From positions 1 through 64,000 of the IMG/VR virus record IMGVR_UViG_3300035193_000030: a stretch of DNA of 64,000 nt. One strand, 5' to 3'. Below, one piece after another: positions 3,137 to 63,987 of this stretch; position 1 is the first letter of the stretch; every line of letters begins with the position of its first letter. This DNA comes from a virus. The notes under the pieces are model-generated. The model searched no databases. It worked only from the letters and a program-made list of their open reading frames with translations, and had not been told where the DNA came from. A program made the position numbers and the translations under genes.

Positions 3137-4765
3137 CTAATTTTTATATTGATTAATAAGTTCCATTATTAAAGATGAAGAATTTGTTTGTACCCCATCT
3201 AATACTAAGTCTAATATTTTTCTTTTTGAGTCCAATAATGAAGCAATTTTTTCTTCAATAGTTCCCATCGCCAGTAATTGGTATACAGTAACATTATCTT
3301 TTTGTCCAATTCGGTGACATCTGTCTTCTGCCTGTATTAATTCACCAGGGGTCCAGGGTAATTCAATAAATGCAACTTTATTTGCTGCGGTTAATGTTAT
3401 CCCTACACCTGCGGCACGAATATTTCCAACAAATAATTTTACATTTGGATTTCGTTGGAAACGATCTACCATTGCTTGTCTTTGTATCCCTATTATCGTT
3501 CCGTCAACCTTAGCAACTCTACCATAAAAATGTTTACAAAGGTTGTCAATAACAAATTTATGATTGGCAAACACTACTAATTTATTATCCTCTAAAATAT
3601 TTTCAATCCAATTTATTATCATTTTTAATTTACCCTTAATAGCTACCTGTTTTAAGCCTTCTATTTCGGTTAATATTTCTGCATTTGCCGCCCTTTGTGC
3701 GGTATCATTCCCTTTATATTGTTCTAGGTACTCTAAAAAATTATTTTCTGCTTGCTCATATTCCTTTCTATTATCCAATAAAATCGGGACAAAAGAATAT
3801 ATTTTCTCAGGTAATTCCTGCAATACATCTTTTTTTAACCTCCTTAGCATTATATTTTCAGAAAGAATTTTATAGAGTTCTTGTGTATTTGAAGCCCCAG
3901 ACATATCCCACCCAAATCCATTATGATAAGCATTACAAAATCTGTGAGCATATTGCATATAATTTGGGAATAATTTTTTATCTAGTATAGAAATGATATT
4001 GTAAAATTCTACGGGACAATTTAATATTGGTGTTCCTGATAATGCAATAATATGAGGAATTGTTTTACTAATTCTTTTAACCGTTTTTGTCCGCTTTGCA
4101 GAATTATTCTTTATATATTGGCATTCATCAATAATTAAGGCTTTTGGGTTTATCCGCAATAATTCATCTTTCCAATTATTTAAAATATCATAATTAATTA
4201 TTATGAAGTCAGATTGGGAACCCAATCTATACGGGTTTCCCCCTTCTAAGACATTTATGTTTCTGTAATCAATCCATTTAATAATTTCATTCCTCCAATT
4301 ATACTTTAATGAGGCTGGGCAGACAATTATTACAGGGCGTATTTCTTTATGTAATTGAAACCAACCTAATGATTGAACCGTCTTTCCCAACCCCATTTCA
4401 TCCCCAATTAAGCATCTCCCGTTTTTAATATCAATAAAATGAACCCCTTTTTTCTGATATGAAAATAATTGATTTTTCATTCCTGGAATATCTACTTCTG
4501 AAAGTTCTATTAATTTTTGTTTTGTTAATTTCCCTTTCTGAATCCGTTCATAGATAATCTGTAATTTTACATCAAATGAAAATTTATAATCATATAATTT
4601 CTCTATTGCTTCAATTGATAAAGGACAATGCCAAATCTTTTTTTCAACATTCCATTTTCTTCCAGGTAATGTCCGTACAAAATCTAAGGTATTTCTATTA
4701 AACGGGAATTTTATAATAATTATTCTTTCCCCTGATTTATAACGAGCAATTGAAGCAGATTTCAT
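3137..4765 (-). CDS. SNF2-family helicase (HARP/SMARCAL1-like)
   Basis: DEMGLGKT, DECQ, LSGTP, QAEDRCHRIGQ motifs. Confidence 0.9.
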   Translation of the reverse strand: MKSASIARYKSGERIIIIKFPFNRNTLDFVRTLPGRKWNVEKKIWHCPLSIEAIEKLYDYKFSFDVKLQIIYERIQKGKLTKQKLIELSEVDIPGMKNQLFSYQKKGVHFIDIKNGRCLIGDEMGLGKTVQSLGWFQLHKEIRPVIIVCPASLKYNWRNEIIKWIDYRNINVLEGGNPYRLGSQSDFIIINYDILNNWKDELLRINPKALIIDECQYIKNNSAKRTKTVKRISKTIPHIIALSGTPILNCPVEFYNIISILDKKLFPNYMQYAHRFCNAYHNGFGWDMSGASNTQELYKILSENIMLRRLKKDVLQELPEKIYSFVPILLDNRKEYEQAENNFLEYLEQYKGNDTAQRAANAEILTEIEGLKQVAIKGKLKMIINWIENILEDNKLVVFANHKFVIDNLCKHFYGRVAKVDGTIIGIQRQAMVDRFQRNPNVKLFVGNIRAAGVGITLTAANKVAFIELPWTPGELIQAEDRCHRIGQKDNVTVYQLLAMGTIEEKIASLLDSKRKILDLVLDGVQTNSSSLIMELINQYKN

Positions 4766-5512: not shown

Positions 5513-5540
5513 AATCGCTAAATTTAGAAATTTTTAATAC

Positions 5541-5565
5541 GGGTACTCTACTAAATAGAGTACCC
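5541..5565. terminator. Stem-loop GGGTACTCTA-ctaaa-TAGAGTACCC
   Basis: Perfect 10-bp intergenic stem downstream of 5597..6376. Confidence 0.5.
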
Positions 5566-5596
5566 CGCTTTGAGCTTAAATTCTATTTATACTCGC

Positions 5597-6376
5597 TCAA
5601 ACGAGTTTGTACTTCCCATTTGCAAATGTAATTACATTGAAAGCCACAAGGGCATCCAACATATATTTATTTACATTGGTAGCAGTAGGGTTACTCTTTC
5701 CCCCATTTTGTATATGAATTTCATTACTTTTATCCATTATTTCTTTAAAAGACCCCCCTTTTTTACAAACTAATTTAATGGCATTGGCGACTGAGTCTGA
5801 TCTTTTTATTGTTTTTTTGACTTCTCTTTTTACGGGTGCTTTTTTTGCAGGATATTTTTTACTTTCAGATTTTTTTACGGGTTTCACTTCTTCTTTCTCT
5901 TCTTGTTCTTCTTCCGTATCAGGGGAAAGTAAATCAAGCATTTTTTTACGAAGTTTTCCCAAATCTTTGTCTTTCAATAACCCAATACCTTTGCGAAGTG
6001 GCTTAAAAATATCACTTTCTTTTACAAGTTCTTTTAACTCAAGGATTGATTCTGCATCTTGAACCTCCTCAATTAAATCATACTCATCCTCATCCTCTTC
6101 AATAACTTCTTTGTTTAATTTTTTTGTTTTTGAAACGGGAATTTCATCTTCCTCATCATCTTCCTTTTCAATTAAAATTTCATCAAGGATGGATTGTGTT
6201 TCATCAGAAAATTCATCTTCTTCCTCAATGAAAGAAGCATATTTTTTGATAGAATCAATTAGTTCTTCCGCAGTTGCCTTTTTTGAAACCACCAAAGGTT
6301 CTTTTGTTTTTGCATCTACAAGATCAAGAACTTTAATCATCTCACTGTAAGCATTTTTTAAATCTTTTGTTTTCAT
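5597..6376 (-). CDS. Acidic hypothetical protein with possible C-terminal winged-helix-like domain
   Basis: 259-aa ORF with E/D-rich linkers; N-terminal domain paralogous to 6429..6662. Confidence 0.7.
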   Translation of the reverse strand: MKTKDLKNAYSEMIKVLDLVDAKTKEPLVVSKKATAEELIDSIKKYASFIEEEDEFSDETQSILDEILIEKEDDEEDEIPVSKTKKLNKEVIEEDEDEYDLIEEVQDAESILELKELVKESDIFKPLRKGIGLLKDKDLGKLRKKMLDLLSPDTEEEQEEKEEVKPVKKSESKKYPAKKAPVKREVKKTIKRSDSVANAIKLVCKKGGSFKEIMDKSNEIHIQNGGKSNPTATNVNKYMLDALVAFNVITFANGKYKLV

Positions 6377-60002: not shown

Positions 60003-61541
60003 CTACCAAAAACTACCAATAAATGGGCGTCCACACCGAAGGTTTTGCAATACATGAATCTGATTCCGTATATTAAAATCCCCTTCTCGAATTACAATTT
60101 CATTTATTCTCATTATCCCAATTTCTTTTTCTCGCCCGTGTGCATCTTGATTTAATCCATACATTGCTGTAACGTGCCCGTATTTTCTTTTATCTTCACT
60201 AAAATTAGTCATTCTTAACGTATCCTTTGCATAACTTTCCGCATCAGCTTGTGTTGCAGTTAAGATTAGACAATGTTTTTCCTGACCTAATCCTCTCAAT
60301 TGCTTCCATATATGGTTTTGTTTATGTCTTTCCTCTTTATAACTATTATCTTCTAATAAATCAGCATAATCTATTATAATCACATCAGGAACAAAATTAT
60401 CTTGTTTTTCCCAAATTCCTAAAATTGCTCTAATTTCATTGACACCTAAAGAACCATTAACGTGAGTAGAAAGACGAAAGGATCGTTTATTCTTAATAAA
60501 AAACTTTTCTATTGCTTCTTTTGCTTCATCTTCGGTTAAAGGCTCTTTTATTTTTATTTTCTTAATAAAAGGTGTTCCCCAAGGATTTTTATTAAATTCC
60601 TTGCAATTAAAACAATTCTTATAATCTTTATTATTTTTATAAACTTCTTTCAATTCTTTCATTGTAATCTTATAACGGTAATTTTCATCCTTATTACGAA
60701 ATAAACCGAAAGAACATTCACGTTCTTCCTTATCACAATTATCCAATTGATTATGTATACAATCTATTACAGGAATATAAAACTCCCCTGTATATTTTTC
60801 ATTATCTGACTTTCCTTTCAATGAAATGCAAATTCTTTTTAATTGTTGGTGTTCAGTCATATCACCTGCCTGGAAAAAAGCGACCTTCCTTTTTTGTGTA
60901 CATGCCTTCTTAGCACATTCAAGTAACCACCAGGTTTTTCCTCTTTTTTCAGGGGCTAAAAACGCTACAAATCCATCCCTTACAAATTGATCATTCCAAA
61001 AACGTCCTAATTCTTTTGGGAATTGTATTAATACCTCAGTTGATTTATTAAATACCTGCCCTATCTTATTCATCACATTTTCTTTATCTTCAAAATTAAT
61101 ACAATTCCCCATTTCTTTTGATAATGGACGATACCCTGATGCCATATTTTCTGCTTCATAAAGTAAACCTTGTTCGGCTAACCCTTTTATTTTGTCAGAA
61201 AAACGAATTAAATTTCTTTCATTAAAGAATTGTAATGCTTTATCCGTATAATATTCTACATTAAAATCATCATTTACATATTCTTCTGACAAGCCAGGTA
61301 ATATATCTTCTTCTATTTCTTGTATTATTTCTTTTTGCAAGCCTTTACCTGCCTTTGCGTAAAGTATAGATTCAATTTCTCTCCCAGGAGCTTTATTGTA
61401 TTTATTAAAATAATCTAAACACCAACTAGCTAATCTTTTTGCAATACTACTTTCAAATAATGCAACATCCCATTTACCTTTTATACGTTGATTAAATTCT
61501 GTGGAAACTATTAATCCAATTACTATCTTTCGTTCTATCAT
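60003..61541 (-). CDS. Replicative DnaB-like helicase
   Basis: APEKRGKT Walker A, IIIDYADL Walker B, TATQ, SEDKRK. Confidence 0.85.
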   Translation of the reverse strand: MIERKIVIGLIVSTEFNQRIKGKWDVALFESSIAKRLASWCLDYFNKYNKAPGREIESILYAKAGKGLQKEIIQEIEEDILPGLSEEYVNDDFNVEYYTDKALQFFNERNLIRFSDKIKGLAEQGLLYEAENMASGYRPLSKEMGNCINFEDKENVMNKIGQVFNKSTEVLIQFPKELGRFWNDQFVRDGFVAFLAPEKRGKTWWLLECAKKACTQKRKVAFFQAGDMTEHQQLKRICISLKGKSDNEKYTGEFYIPVIDCIHNQLDNCDKEERECSFGLFRNKDENYRYKITMKELKEVYKNNKDYKNCFNCKEFNKNPWGTPFIKKIKIKEPLTEDEAKEAIEKFFIKNKRSFRLSTHVNGSLGVNEIRAILGIWEKQDNFVPDVIIIDYADLLEDNSYKEERHKQNHIWKQLRGLGQEKHCLILTATQADAESYAKDTLRMTNFSEDKRKYGHVTAMYGLNQDAHGREKEIGIMRINEIVIREGDFNIRNQIHVLQNLRCGRPFIGSFW

Positions 61542-62338
61542 ATTGCTAATGGTAATTTATTTAATATCTTCATACTAACATGTGTATAAATTTCAGTTGT
61601 TTTGCTTGAGGAATGCCCTGCAAGTTTCTGAATTATTCTTAAATCCACTCCCTGATCAGTCAAATTTGTAAAACATGAATGTCTAAGAAGATGAAAATGA
61701 TATTCTTCTCCCAAATATCGTTTAACTATTTTATTACAACTTCCGGCAGAATATTTTAAACAATTTTGCCCATTAAACAAATATTTCTTTGGTTTATATT
61801 GTTTGTAATATTTTCTTAATAATTCCAATAAAGTAGGGGTTAATGGGACTATTCTATCTTTGTTACCCTTCGCTTGTCTTACATTTATTATCATTCTTTT
61901 ACTATCAACATCCGTAATTTTTAAATTTATTACCTCTGATACTCTTAATCCTACTGAATAAGATAATGATATTATGGCTTTATGTTTTAAATTTTTTATT
62001 TGTTTTATTGTATTTAATAAATAATCTTTATTAATAACCTGTGGCAAATGTTTTTCTTTCCTTGGGCGTTTAAAATCAATTTTGTTATATTTTTTACCCA
62101 AAACTTTTTCCCACCCAAATTTTATGGCATTTATGATTTGATTTTGCTGTGAAATGGAAGAATAATCAAAATTTAATAAATAATTTTGTATATCATTGGC
62201 GTTTAAATGTTGAGGATATTTATTAAATGACTGTAAAAATTTTTCAAAATAATGTCTATATATTTCAATTGTTCTTTCTGAATAATTGAAATATTTTAAT
62301 TTTTGAATATAAATTTTTAAAAAATTAGTATGTAACAT
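61538..62338 (-). CDS. Tyrosine recombinase, integron-integrase-like but lacking the IntI-specific insertion
   Basis: YSERT..Y, QNQ.INAIKF, LPQV, GLRVSE (R), KG.KDR (K), HLLRH (H-x-x-R), GH...TT.IYTH (H, Y). Confidence 0.9.
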   Translation of the reverse strand: MLHTNFLKIYIQKLKYFNYSERTIEIYRHYFEKFLQSFNKYPQHLNANDIQNYLLNFDYSSISQQNQIINAIKFGWEKVLGKKYNKIDFKRPRKEKHLPQVINKDYLLNTIKQIKNLKHKAIISLSYSVGLRVSEVINLKITDVDSKRMIINVRQAKGNKDRIVPLTPTLLELLRKYYKQYKPKKYLFNGQNCLKYSAGSCNKIVKRYLGEEYHFHLLRHSCFTNLTDQGVDLRIIQKLAGHSSSKTTEIYTHVSMKILNKLPLAI

Positions 62339-62391
62339 ATTTAGTACAAATTAATTAGCATTACAATTTTATATATAATAGTTCAAGTCAA

Positions 62392-62706
62392 TTACGCTTC
62401 GCTTAGAAATTGTTTAAGTGTGCAATCACATTTATTTGAACCAGCAATACTTCCATTAAAGTTATAATACGGAACTTGCCCAGTATCTCCACACTTAAAA
62501 CATTTCACACTACGCTTGACGGTAGCTTCATTTAAAATTTTTATAGCTTTTTTTAAGTTACGAATATTCCTTCCATTCTCAATTACATGTTTGTGCCCTA
62601 TTTCTTTTACAATTCTCTTATCAGACTTAGCCCATTCTTTAGAATCAGAATATTCTTTTTCTAATTCTTTAATTTTTTGTTCTAATAATTCTATTACATA
62701 TTTCAT
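62392..62706 (-). CDS. Cassette protein: coiled coil + CxxCxxxG zinc finger
   Basis: CFKCGDTG...CDC; stop codon inside the terminal repeat. Confidence 0.7.
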   Translation of the reverse strand: MKYVIELLEQKIKELEKEYSDSKEWAKSDKRIVKEIGHKHVIENGRNIRNLKKAIKILNEATVKRSVKCFKCGDTGQVPYYNFNGSIAGSNKCDCTLKQFLSEA

Positions 62707-62743
62707 AATTAAAATTTTAAATTCTCACTACCTAATTGACTTG

Positions 62744-62887
62744 AACGGGCGCGGTGTGTCCGCTCTTATCATTCTTTTCCCGAGCGAAGCGAACGTGCCT
62801 CGAACAAGGTGTAAACTGAATTTAATACTTTTCTCTTGCTCGTTCCTCACAAGCGGTATTAAACTACAGTTTCACACCGCGCCCGTT
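62744..62887. repeat. attC-like hairpin 1
   Basis: Perfect 15-bp IR AACGGGCGCGGTGTG/CACACCGCGCCCGTT plus an imperfect IR 62808-62828 / 62856-62878. Confidence 0.8.
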
Positions 62888-62905
62888 ACCAACAATAAAA
62901 AATTA

Positions 62906-63283
62906 TTATCGGTGTAAGTAAACATTAGTTCTTTCGGTGTCGCCGTCTCGCTCGAACCATCCAAAATAAACCTTTTTCTTCCTGCCTAGTACGTGTGGTG
63001 CTATCCAATCAATAAATGTATTTAATTCTTCGCTCTCGTAGTTAATATCGGTATGTATGGCAAGTTCCCATCCATTTTTTACCTCTTTTACATAAGGTTT
63101 ATCATACCCACCATACCCCATTGTTGCAAACATCTGGTACCATCTTTGTGTGTCAAAAAATGGATTCTTCTCGTATGGGGCATCGTGGTTATTTTCAATA
63201 CATTTATTTAGCCACTCTATCAAACTTTCGGGAGTATTCCTACCAAGGTTTATTTTTAACTTTATCTCAGTTATGTAGCTCAT
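62906..63283 (-). CDS. Cassette protein, hypothetical
   Basis: 125-aa ORF filling the space between 19/22-bp inverted repeats. Confidence 0.75.
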   Translation of the reverse strand: MSYITEIKLKINLGRNTPESLIEWLNKCIENNHDAPYEKNPFFDTQRWYQMFATMGYGGYDKPYVKEVKNGWELAIHTDINYESEELNTFIDWIAPHVLGRKKKVYFGWFERDGDTERTNVYLHR

Positions 63284-63300
63284 AATTTTTAAAAGTTGGT

Positions 63301-63420
63301 AACAATGTACATAGGTAATTTGCCGTGTTTCATTGTTACAGTTGTTTGTAATTCAAATTTATCTCTTTGTTGTTACTTAATGCGTCAAGCAGGGGCAAAC
63401 ATACCCATGTACTCAACGTT
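63301..63420. repeat. attC-like hairpin 2
   Basis: AAC-aat-GTACATAGGTAATTTGCC ... GGCAAACATACCCATGTAC-tcaac-GTT, imperfect stem with bulge. Confidence 0.75.
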
Positions 63421-63679
63421 ATGGCAAATGCGAGAGCATTATTTTACAAAGTTCATCTGCATCTAATCCATAAACGCTTATTAGTTCACTACTGTAGTAT
63501 TCGTTTTTATTATATATCTGGTAAAACTTATCTTTCTCATAGTTATAGTCAATATTATCTAATGTAGGCGAAGCACTTACCATAACACTAAATAAATTCC
63601 ATAACTCAGTTTGTGCCTGTTCGGGGGTCAGTTCTCCGTTTGCAACTTTTGTAAGTAATTCTAACTGTTGTTCTTTCAT
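63419..63679 (-). CDS. Chimeric cassette protein spanning a recombination site
   Basis: Start and first ~31 codons lie in hairpin 3; the remainder lies in cassette 63418-63586. Confidence 0.7.
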   Translation of the reverse strand: MKEQQLELLTKVANGELTPEQAQTELWNLFSVMVSASPTLDNIDYNYEKDKFYQIYNKNEYYSSELISVYGLDADELCKIMLSHLP

Positions 63680-63706
63680 ATCGTTACGGTATTTATTATT
63701 TTCGTT
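63584..63706. repeat. attC-like hairpin 3 (coding)
   Basis: AAC-acta-AATAAATTCCATAAC ... GTTACGGTATTTATT-attttc-GTT, 13/15 match. Confidence 0.75.
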
Positions 63707-63765
63707 GTAATTAAAACGAAACTACAACACATTATATAAATAATGCGCTGTAGCTCGTATCAACT

Positions 63766-63987
63766 TTATTCCTCTCCCACGCACCATTCTAAAGTTTCAA
63801 TCTTATAACCATATAAAGCCAAATGCCTTGTTACCATATCAGCATACGGTGGCAACATAGGTACTTTACCGCTTTCAATATCTTTCCATTGGTCATCCCA
63901 AGTCTTTTTTTCAGCCTTTAGTTCGGCAATTTTGTCTTTAACTTCTTGTTCGCTTTTCATTTTATTAAGTAATGCCCACGCTCGCAA
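63766..63987 (-). CDS. hypothetical protein in the array (probable start MKSEQ at 63960)
   Basis: MKSEQEVKDKI...KIETLEWC small helical phage protein. Confidence 0.6.
   Translation of the reverse strand: MRAWALLNKMKSEQEVKDKIAELKAEKKTWDDQWKDIESGKVPMLPPYADMVTRHLALYGYKIETLEWCVGEE

Follow-up and report, generated by a model that had tools for sequence, protein, structure and literature searches.

The window analysed here comprises bases 1-64000 of a 72,076-bp virus record (IMG/VR record IMGVR_UViG_3300035193_000030), the remainder of which was taken as contig L002 (genome 61001-72076). Near the end of the window a minus-strand open reading frame (ORF 63419-63679) encodes a protein of 86 amino acids (aa) that begins inside a hairpin. 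We consider this ORF, at a probability of roughly 60%, to be a single gene cassette of an integron-like array carried by a phage. Read in the gene sense, such a cassette would consist of C-G, a spacer, a long imperfect stem, the loop, the returning stem, a second spacer, the box GTTRnnnnnn, the gene body and the box nnnnnnYTAA. In the circular, excised cassette the two boxes that flank the body would pair and complete the base of the hairpin, yielding an attC-like site. The strand that folds would be the coding strand, and an Xer/XerA-like tyrosine recombinase encoded next to the array would cut it at TAA|C and exchange the cut site with another hairpin or with an attI-like site beside its own gene. 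With the site at the 5' end of the gene, the loop could carry the 5' untranslated region (UTR), the ATG and the N-terminal residues, and in the hairpin family of the 86-aa ORF, referred to below as the N-module, the frame would always read the GTT core as valine. The evidence is comparative throughout; that recombination occurs, by which enzyme and at which position, is what we infer from it.

The hairpin loop as a coding sequence

The ATG of the ORF (63679-63677) lies 3 nt within the loop of a 14-bp stem that was obtained with RNAalifold from 29 related sequences. Its two paired segments are, in the numbering of the window, 63697-63691 with 63597-63591 and 63689-63683 with 63605-63599; they join the 5' UTR (63697-63683) to codons 25-30 (63605-63591), and folding of the window strand alone gave the same stem. 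Codon 32 is GTT (63586-63584), followed by ATG GTA AGT GCT, and the stop codon TAA (63421-63419) sits in CCATAAC (63424-63418), which forms an inverted repeat with GTTATGG (pair I7). An earlier, sequence-only reading of this stretch had located the start in the loop of this hairpin (hairpin 3), the in-frame GTT and the stop within CCATAAC, in each case correctly. Among the relatives, 98% of the 406 alignment cells of the stem are paired, as compared to merely 32-46% for slid controls, and none of 500 shuffles reached the covariation score. Four of the 14 stem pairs are maintained through two-sided changes (one of them is A-U in 15 sequences, G-C in 9 and U-A in 1).

The frame of the N-module is open in all 29 distinct relatives, both other frames contain stops in all 29, and the median ratio of non-synonymous to synonymous substitution (dN/dS) is 0.56. 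Within the stretch KVANGELTPEQA the window and the related locus L005 differ at six third positions and at zero amino acids. A chance ORF or a chance hairpin is ruled out by these coding and covariation tests. The Pfam family PF22746 (SHOCT-like) matched 18 of 30 N-modules at E<=10, with a best E of 1e-6; for the window's own N-module the match (13.2 bits, E 0.069) stayed below the cutoff of 27 bits and is to be read as a likeness, not as certified membership. The features in common are a helix-Gly-helix motif and a length of about 32 residues, whereas the domain found here is N-terminal and encoded in the loop of a recombination hairpin. On this basis the loop of hairpin 3 is predicted to encode a translated, 32-residue SHOCT-like mini-domain, which by analogy might oligomerise, although this last point is a guess.

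A protein search returned 11 proteins in which the first ~33 residues were conserved, while the remainder fell into at least four unrelated groups; in one of them (P0004) the tail was that of the query and the head had diverged. A scan of contig collections recovered 1 viral and 36 metagenomic N-module loci. In 34 of the 36 the match was limited to residues 1-38, and the 48 translated proteins from the N-module loci included 18 unrelated C-terminal families. A profile of 30 N-modules gave 212 matches at E<=1e-3 against 1.84 billion representative proteins, and 150 listed matches of these were examined together with the 11 earlier proteins. Counts were made on the 129 small proteins in which the module reached the junction; 17 larger proteins, matching through internal repeats of a similar motif, were set aside. 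The module starts at residue 1 in 111 of the 129, residue 32 is valine in 105, and residue 33 is mostly serine (61), followed by methionine (20), glycine (10) and arginine (10). Tails of 25 aa or more, 120 in all, formed 97 families. By these comparisons the N-module is joined to about 100 unrelated bodies, the similarity ending at V32 (GTT), as the sequence-only reading had anticipated when it proposed an N-terminal part on unrelated C-termini with the break at the valine codon. Since methionine is rare at residue 33, most bodies appear to lack a start codon of their own, which the hairpin would supply.

The body of the 86-aa protein has few relatives: searched alone it recovered only P0001-P0003, plus P0004 among longer proteins. 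The 86-aa protein as a whole had no match at E<=1 among GenBank phages, where no close relative was found by DNA either, and tblastn located none of the other genes of the window array in the 37 N-module loci. The N-module was absent from species-representative bacterial genomes when these were searched by peptide patterns, and a DNA pattern found it in 4 contigs of metagenome-assembled genomes (MAGs) only, which may themselves be phage DNA. Large cellular proteins (P0012, P0022, P0036, P0056 and others) contain 3-13 internal repeats of an N-module-like unit (..L..VA.G.LTPEEA..L), from which it follows that the mini-domain is used elsewhere as a repeat unit.

When the loci were stacked on the ATG, a conserved block extended from ~29 nt upstream (yTAAC|G) to the GTT, and everything outside it differed. 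A unit of this kind, about 120 nt long, with imperfect terminal inverted repeats of ~20 nt and constituting the sole sequence common to unrelated loci, recalls selfish palindromes such as the Rickettsia palindromic elements and miniature inverted-repeat transposable elements (MITEs), and could be regarded as a mini-element that inserts in frame into genes. We consider this very improbable, as the module occupies the very start of nearly all the small proteins, is single-copy in this genome, shows no target-site duplication, is constrained at the protein level and is one member of a broader site family that is arranged as arrays. A repeated promoter motif was ruled out as well, the 5' UTR motif being single-copy in the genome.

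Cassette boxes, recombinase and the end of the array

A covariance model of the conserved block (R1) recovered weaker elements in these loci, on the same strand, as well as two further ones in this genome. All have a common layout, in which yTAACG and 3-8 nt precede an imperfect 16-20-bp stem, and the loop, with 11 to more than 100 nt, leads into the return arm, 1-4 nt and GTTA. Judged by architecture and cores, this layout corresponds to the R''-L''...L'-R' plan of integron attC sites, with R' being GTTR but rarely the full GTTRRRY. A scan of the minus strand of this genome for AAC-stem-GTT hairpins found 62887-62744, 63420-63301, 64651-64562 and 65462-65344 besides the N-module hairpin. At least five attC-like hairpins are thus present within 62.7-65.5 kb, with no IntI present, and such hairpins separate the small co-directional genes in the last ~10 kb of the 72-kb genome.

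In integron cassettes the bases that follow the crossover complement the R'' box of the cassette's own site and not that of the adjacent hairpin. Similarly, the boxes around each body are complementary here over 9-14 nt (GTTRnnnnnn ... nnnnnnYAAC). Of 34 N-module loci, 18 have complementarity of 6 nt or more past the core between the sequence behind the GTT and that ahead of the next AAC downstream, whereas an equal-size upstream control gave at most 4 nt and the AAC of the hairpin itself 0-3 nt (the row of L025 being invalid, as it has no upstream sequence). Box complementarity is seen in all three cassettes of the window, A, B and C (Table 1), and in the cassette of a DUF5662 protein. In cassette A the pair is GTTACCAAC / GTTGGTAAC, and in cassette B, which is the 86-aa gene, the boxes extend to 14 pairs if two G.T pairs are allowed. 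The first bases of a cassette thus complement its own R'' box, as the structure of an integron cassette predicts. The stop codon mostly lies within that box as ...TAA|C, which explains why otherwise unrelated proteins have recurrent tail endings.

The gene that follows the downstream end of the array encodes a short tyrosine recombinase. Its best NCBIfam model is XerA (182 bits, below the cutoff of 220), whereas the integron integrase model TIGR02249 reaches 140 bits in 2 stretches (cutoff 265) and NF011946 91 bits (cutoff 435). Among PDB entries the XerA-like 4a8e matches at 2.7e-33, and IntI4 (2a3v) aligns over residues 16-177 only. Considering that the IntI models match partially and IntI4 over this segment alone, the recombinase is without the IntI-specific insertion. 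Homologues with 51-70% identity are encoded on 19 viral contigs (of which L067 duplicates L066), with hairpin arrays just upstream: 76 AAC-stem-GTT hairpins were found in the 5 kb upstream of the recombinase genes against 8 in the 5 kb downstream. TAACG is present at 55 and GTTA at 61 of these 84 hairpins, neighbouring boxes are often complementary by exactly 7 nt beyond the core, and between arrays only hairpins, not bodies, are common at the DNA level. Leader-encoding hairpins are a general feature of the recombinase-anchored arrays. Of 73 distinct hairpins there, 15 contain an ATG from which an ORF extends 30 codons or more beyond the GTT while reading GTT as a codon, and ORFs in the two alternative frames account for 4 hairpins each; at a further 37 an ORF starts within 60 nt after the hairpin.

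The arrays stop 35-150 nt before the ATG of the recombinase. Here an R'' box is joined directly to a conserved non-hairpin sequence, AAC|TATTATATATAA. In 13 of 16 loci this last R'' box and the R' box of the final cassette are complementary, and no hairpin separates the R'' box from the recombinase gene. The 15-mer AACTATTATATATAA occurs just upstream of the recombinase with up to 2 mismatches in 13 of 20 loci and with up to 4 in 18 of 20. Given the complementary boxes and the arrays anchored at the recombinase, the proposal of the sequence-only reading that hairpin 3 belongs to an integron-like recombination system is well in line with what we found.

Table 1. Features of the array and its surroundings in the window.
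Feature	Position	Strand	Basis or remark
Short Xer/XerA-like tyrosine recombinase, 266 aa, at downstream array end	61538..62338	(-)	Pfam Phage_integrase 3.9e-35 and Phage_int_SAM_4
attI-like terminal sequence (TATTATATATAAA...) adjoining the last AAC of the array; may hold the recombinase promoter	62339..62380	(-)	conservation of the 15-mer AACTATTATATATAA
R'' box of cassette C (TAATTGACTTGAAC), holds stop TAA of ORF 62392-62706	62381..62394	(-)	perfect 14-nt complement of 62733-62746
Body of cassette C: 104-aa coiled-coil and Zn-ribbon ORF with own ATG	62392..62706	(-)	no Pfam family at cutoff
R' box of cassette C (GTTCAAGTCAATTA)	62733..62746	(-)	complement of 62381-62394
attC-like hairpin 1, 15-bp perfect G+C-rich stem including the AAC and GTT cores	62744..62887	(-)	pair I17; -33.9 kcal/mol, z -5.09, 0/200 shuffles as good; scan -20 kcal/mol
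R'' box of cassette A (GTTGGTAAC)	62885..62893	(-)	pair I4; complement of 63295-63303
Body of cassette A: 125-aa ORF with own ATG 18 nt past GTT	62906..63283	(-)	no Pfam match
attC-like hairpin 2 (CATAAC-GTTGA-stem ... stem-ATT-GTTACC)	63301..63420	(-)	scan -15 kcal/mol
R'' box of cassette B (CCATAAC), holds stop TAA; proposed crossover TAA|C	63418..63424	(-)	pair I7
Body of cassette B, C-terminal 54 aa of the 86-aa protein	63419..63583	(-)	homologues only P0001-P0004; no Pfam match
R' box of cassette B (GTTATGG)	63580..63586	(-)	GTT = codon 32 (Val); similarity of relatives stops here
N-module coding sequence, residues 1-32, SHOCT-like	63584..63679	(-)	open frame, dN/dS, likeness to PF22746
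Hairpin 3 (N-module hairpin), attC-like	63584..63706	(-)	AAC 63706-63704, 6-nt spacer, 5' arm 63697-63683, loop with ATG and codons 1-24, 3' arm 63605-63591, 4-nt spacer, GTT; covariance model R1 143.5 bits
Terminator-like hairpin and T-rich run, 3' of ORF 63766-63987	63721..63754	(-)	sequence, fold

Proposed position of the crossover

The sequence-only reading placed the cut at G|TT of codon 32 and had the body fused to whichever hairpin precedes it. In its general form this would mean that the hairpin travels with the upstream gene and that start-less bodies are joined to any leader hairpin, so that domain shuffling would be routine. Much of the above agrees with such a model: the similarity of relatives stops at the GTT, valine prevails at residue 32 with methionine scarce at residue 33, and the leader hairpins favour one frame relative to the GTT. 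Furthermore, classical integrons carry the attC after the gene and are cut at G|TT, according to the excerpted text of a report on phage cassettes (PMC9892861). We nevertheless regard this model as improbable, and the crossover is probably at TAA|C instead, because of the polarity of the arrays with their attI-like junction, the bias of stem mismatches and the body families that travel as units.

With regard to polarity, the AAC box of the last body directly adjoins the attI-like sequence, hairpins being absent beyond that body, and since this body is joined directly to non-hairpin sequence, the last unit consists of a hairpin and the body behind it. With regard to the mismatches, isolated ones in the stems of 60 hairpins were, on the gene-sense strand, 64 times G.T, 5 times A.C and 10 times other, and the excess of G.T over A.C on this strand indicates that the coding strand is the folding strand. 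Classical attC sites are cut on their folded strand at AA|C, on the 5' side of the hairpin, and here the bias would put the 5' AAC at the same position. Finally, four body families found in independent loci (THRTSPN..., VSLPIES..., L035/L038 and L025/L036) keep their own N-module subtype, while the sequence differs directly after their AAC and directly before the AAC of the hairpin. The 86-aa gene is therefore most likely one cassette, running from 63704 to 63419 with its recombination site at the 5' end.

How tightly head and body are linked was assessed on 128 pairs with homologous bodies, in which the median identity was 89.5% for the N-module and 86% for the body, so that the two track each other. 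In 13 of the 128 pairs the identity of the body exceeds that of the head by at least 25 points, and at least three independent exchanges of the head on a conserved body can be discerned (P0004 versus the query family, P0087 versus the L016 family, and L008 versus L009/P0013). L009 resembles L005 over the hairpin, the R' box and some 45-50 nt at the start of the body, and L008 from there on, which indicates a crossover by homology within the body rather than at the GTT. The exchange of N- and C-terminal modules proposed by the sequence-only reading does occur, then, but as an exception: N-module and body appear usually to be inherited together and to be exchanged rarely. Cuts at TAA|C alone would leave unexplained how one hairpin family came to head ~100 bodies with the break always at the GTT. 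The genesis of cassettes, or rare exchanges or reactions near the GTT as a second core, are possible origins of the many bodies. Outside the N-module set, the bodies common to several arrays were too few to show which flanking hairpin accompanies the body.

The same structures could also act at the RNA level. The hairpins would then be 5' stem-loops with a role in translation, stability or processing of the small genes, their conservation also making them patches at which phages recombine by homology, and the recombinase would be an ordinary integrase. T4-type phages offer a precedent in their promoter-stem-loop (PeSL) cassettes, where an early promoter and a stem-loop are repeated between small genes and serve as patches for homologous exchange. 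The excess of G.T over A.C falls on the transcribed strand, one G.U pair of the hairpin 3 stem is conserved in 28 of 29 sequences, the start codon lies at the base of the stem, and the hairpins are all that the arrays have in common at the DNA level; moreover, L009 would result from homologous exchange, and N-module genes occur in phages that have no recombinase. On the other hand, an RNA function leaves the invariant AAC and GTT cores unexplained, and also the complementarity of boxes over 9-14 nt across whole coding bodies and the last AAC that abuts a conserved sequence at a fixed place before the recombinase. In addition, Rfam gave no family match in the hairpin region, and two matches in L002 with an E of 0.83 were dismissed. 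We consider this explanation unlikely on the whole, yet somewhat less so than a routine cut at G|TT.

Several observations weigh against the cassette interpretation. The strong G.T bias fits an RNA structure equally well. The thresholds of the hairpin scan were ad hoc, and the background amounted to ~7-8 matches per 60 kb in the remaining genome. Folded alone, hairpin 3 is ordinary (-9.2 kcal/mol, z -0.99, with 30 of 200 shuffles folding as well), and for hairpin 2 the minimum-energy fold favours a competing local hairpin, GTAACAATG..CATTGTTAC (z -1.4). Over long divergence the hairpins on either side of a body are replaced. Rich in A+T, the attI-like motif has 9 further copies in the same loci at up to 2 mismatches and may be a promoter only, while the recombinase, without the integron-integrase insertion, could be a lysogeny integrase with a conserved neighbourhood. 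In one complete phage genome of 58.7 kb the N-module is present, but a tyrosine recombinase and a hairpin cluster are both absent, and in genomes G002 and G003 hairpins were found at background density only, without a cluster. Finally, no recombination joints were seen in the assembled contigs of one public run that contains this DNA and is probably the source of the sequence; no RNA run was listed as containing it.

Known systems and neighbouring features

The likeness to integrons comprises the arrays of small genes between imperfect hairpins with AAC/GTT cores, the complementarity between the first bases of a cassette and the bases before its own terminal AAC, the preference for folding of one strand, and the tyrosine recombinase gene with a unique non-hairpin site at one end of the array. 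Conserved hairpin families with hypervariable cargo are likewise shared, especially with sedentary chromosomal arrays that have homogeneous attC sites. The differences are equally clear. The recombinase has 266 aa, is closest to XerA and is without the integron-integrase insertion. The genes lie on the folding strand, co-directional with the recombinase and oriented towards it, which puts the site 5' of each gene body, whereas in integrons one expects top-strand genes transcribed away from attI by a common promoter. The R boxes span 10-16 bp and the stems 14-20 bp, G.T pairs replace extrahelical bases, about a fifth of the sites encode a start codon and an N-terminus, and the array is phage-borne.

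Clusters of attC sites lacking integrases (CALINs) have been described in 17 phages, including a Polaribacter phage, and IntI1 recombined 5 of 6 tested phage attC sites at G|TTRRRY, according to the excerpted text of Qi et al. 2023 (PMC9892861). Like the present array, these clusters combine attC-type sites with cassettes; the phages concerned are virulent, and one of them infects a flavobacterium (Polaribacter). The clusters differ in having 2-3 sites that are called by standard attC models, and the excerpts of that paper (PMC9892861) report neither a dedicated recombinase nor a coding function of the sites. A parallel to a coding site is found in class 1 integrons, for which the excerpted text of a review (PMC8876359) describes ORF-11 and ORF-18 in attI1, short ORFs within attC and occasional, accidental cassette fusions such as gcuF1-OXA-28. 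Here, too, a frame starts in the recombination site, crosses the core and serves cassettes without an initiation region of their own, but according to the same excerpts these peptides act by translational coupling and their sequence matters little (PMC8876359), while the N-module is a conserved domain under purifying selection that becomes part of the product.

A search of the literature, covering the main text of open-licence papers and preprints, found no attC-encoded N-terminal or conserved domain and no phage array ending at an Xer-like recombinase. Shufflons and invertible tail-fibre segments, in which C-termini are switched behind a constant N-terminus, resemble the N-module genes in having the recombination site in frame between one unchanging part and several alternative ones; they differ in that their segments invert within one genome between inverted repeats, whereas here each module has one body and the variety exists between genomes. 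Xer/dif modules, such as integrative mobile elements exploiting Xer (IMEX) and pdif modules, are flanked by 28-bp dif-like sites with two 11-bp arms and a 6-bp centre. The recombinase of the present array is Xer-like as well, but the boundaries found are hairpins with AAC/GTT cores, no search having been aimed at dif-like sites.

Taken further, these comparisons raise the possibility that flavobacterial-type phages have an integron analogue of their own, with a short Xer-like recombinase without the IntI insertion and a 5' site on the coding strand that doubles as translation start and N-terminal domain, and in which the convention that GTT is read as valine makes start-less bodies and leader sites interchangeable. 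This broader proposal is tentative and to our mind has somewhat less than an even chance. If true, it would constitute a natural form of site-specific domain shuffling and shed light on the way in which cassettes obtain their sites. Gene capture is classically exemplified by integrons, yet how genes acquire an attC is unsolved, and the system has been tied to one clade of insertion-bearing integrases; a phage array with the cassette signature and a plain Xer-like recombinase is thus relevant to the evolutionary path from Xer enzymes to single-strand hairpin recombination. One hairpin family gives a 5' UTR, a start codon and a small helical domain to ~100 unrelated small proteins in one frame, and this makes both the assembly of proteins from modules by site-specific recombination and the birth of cassettes testable. 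It also provides a common handle for finding and studying a large pool of hypervariable small phage proteins, which are plausibly host-takeover or counter-defence factors.

The large terminase of the genome is 37% identical to that of Croceibacter phage P2559Y, and the recombinase shares 35-37% identity with the 'integrases' found in phages of Cellulophaga and Polaribacter. On the basis of these resemblances we infer a phage of the type that infects Flavobacteriia. From ~62.3 kb to the end of the contig nearly all ORFs are small, on the minus strand and without Pfam families, the exceptions up to ~72 kb being a DUF5662 protein and a radical-SAM/UPF0004 protein. No tRNA was found. The GTTGTAG of the terminator-like hairpin at 63721..63754 is nearly complementary to the TTACAAC that precedes hairpin 3.

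The 104-aa ORF of cassette C was put forward by the sequence-only reading as a decayed example of the same fusion, at a VKRSV junction. There is no GTT codon at this junction, but a different GTT..AAC repeat flanks the Zn-ribbon part: a 17-nt inverted repeat with GTT/AAC cores (62406-62422 / 62490-62506, pair I16), whose GTT is out of frame. A paralogue at L002 8679-8975 (genome 69679-69975) has the same coiled-coil start (MKY.IELLE...) and a different Cys-rich tail, and the two may perhaps form another head/tail mosaic.

In many cassettes (L005, L008, L011, L004 and, in this genome, at ~69.5 kb) the positions 9-17 nt after the GTT, past the variable 6-nt part of R', hold a common TCGTTGCC that encodes Ser-Leu-Pro and has an imperfect complement before the R'' box; given this complement, the boxes may reach 15-16 nt. 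Two intergenic regions of L002, 3523-3822 and 6958-7324 (genome 64523-64822 and 67958-68324; 300 and 367 nt), fold strongly (-97.5 and -76.2 kcal/mol) and have no Rfam match. In the first, the perfect arms of a 14-nt inverted repeat enclose a 50-nt 'empty cassette', and an attC-like hairpin comes next. Around ORF 64823-65005 there is a 17-nt perfect inverted repeat (L002 ~3700 and 4060-4076; genome ~64700 and 65060-65076) with the cores AAT/ATT instead of AAC/GTT, which amounts to a compensatory change of the core.

Among the related loci, the MAG contig L049 carries two full N-module hairpins 1.2 kb apart (minus strand, 239-390 and 1435-1586) with other hairpins in between, and one of its cassettes contains two ORFs and a promoter-like motif of the TAnnTTTG type. 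A further hairpin of the class, at L039 4027-4178, codes for the N-region of a lipoprotein-like signal peptide that extends past the GTT into the segment behind it. In the cultured Cellulophaga phage Ingeline_1 (MT732435.1; L053 6501-6863) a single such hairpin, with a whole annotated 71-aa gene in its loop, is situated immediately upstream of the 'integrase'. This phage, whose recombinase is 37% identical to that of the window, could serve as an experimental system.

Elsewhere in the window, a Pistol ribozyme is present at 5535-5606 on the minus strand (Rfam RF02679, full length, 68.1 bits against a gathering score of 34.5), which was the sole Rfam match in the window. At the end of the record ~220 nt (L002 10856-11076; genome 71856-72076) consist of a hexamer-like simple repeat of the AGACC/AAGACC type, which would be either an assembly end or a terminal repeat.

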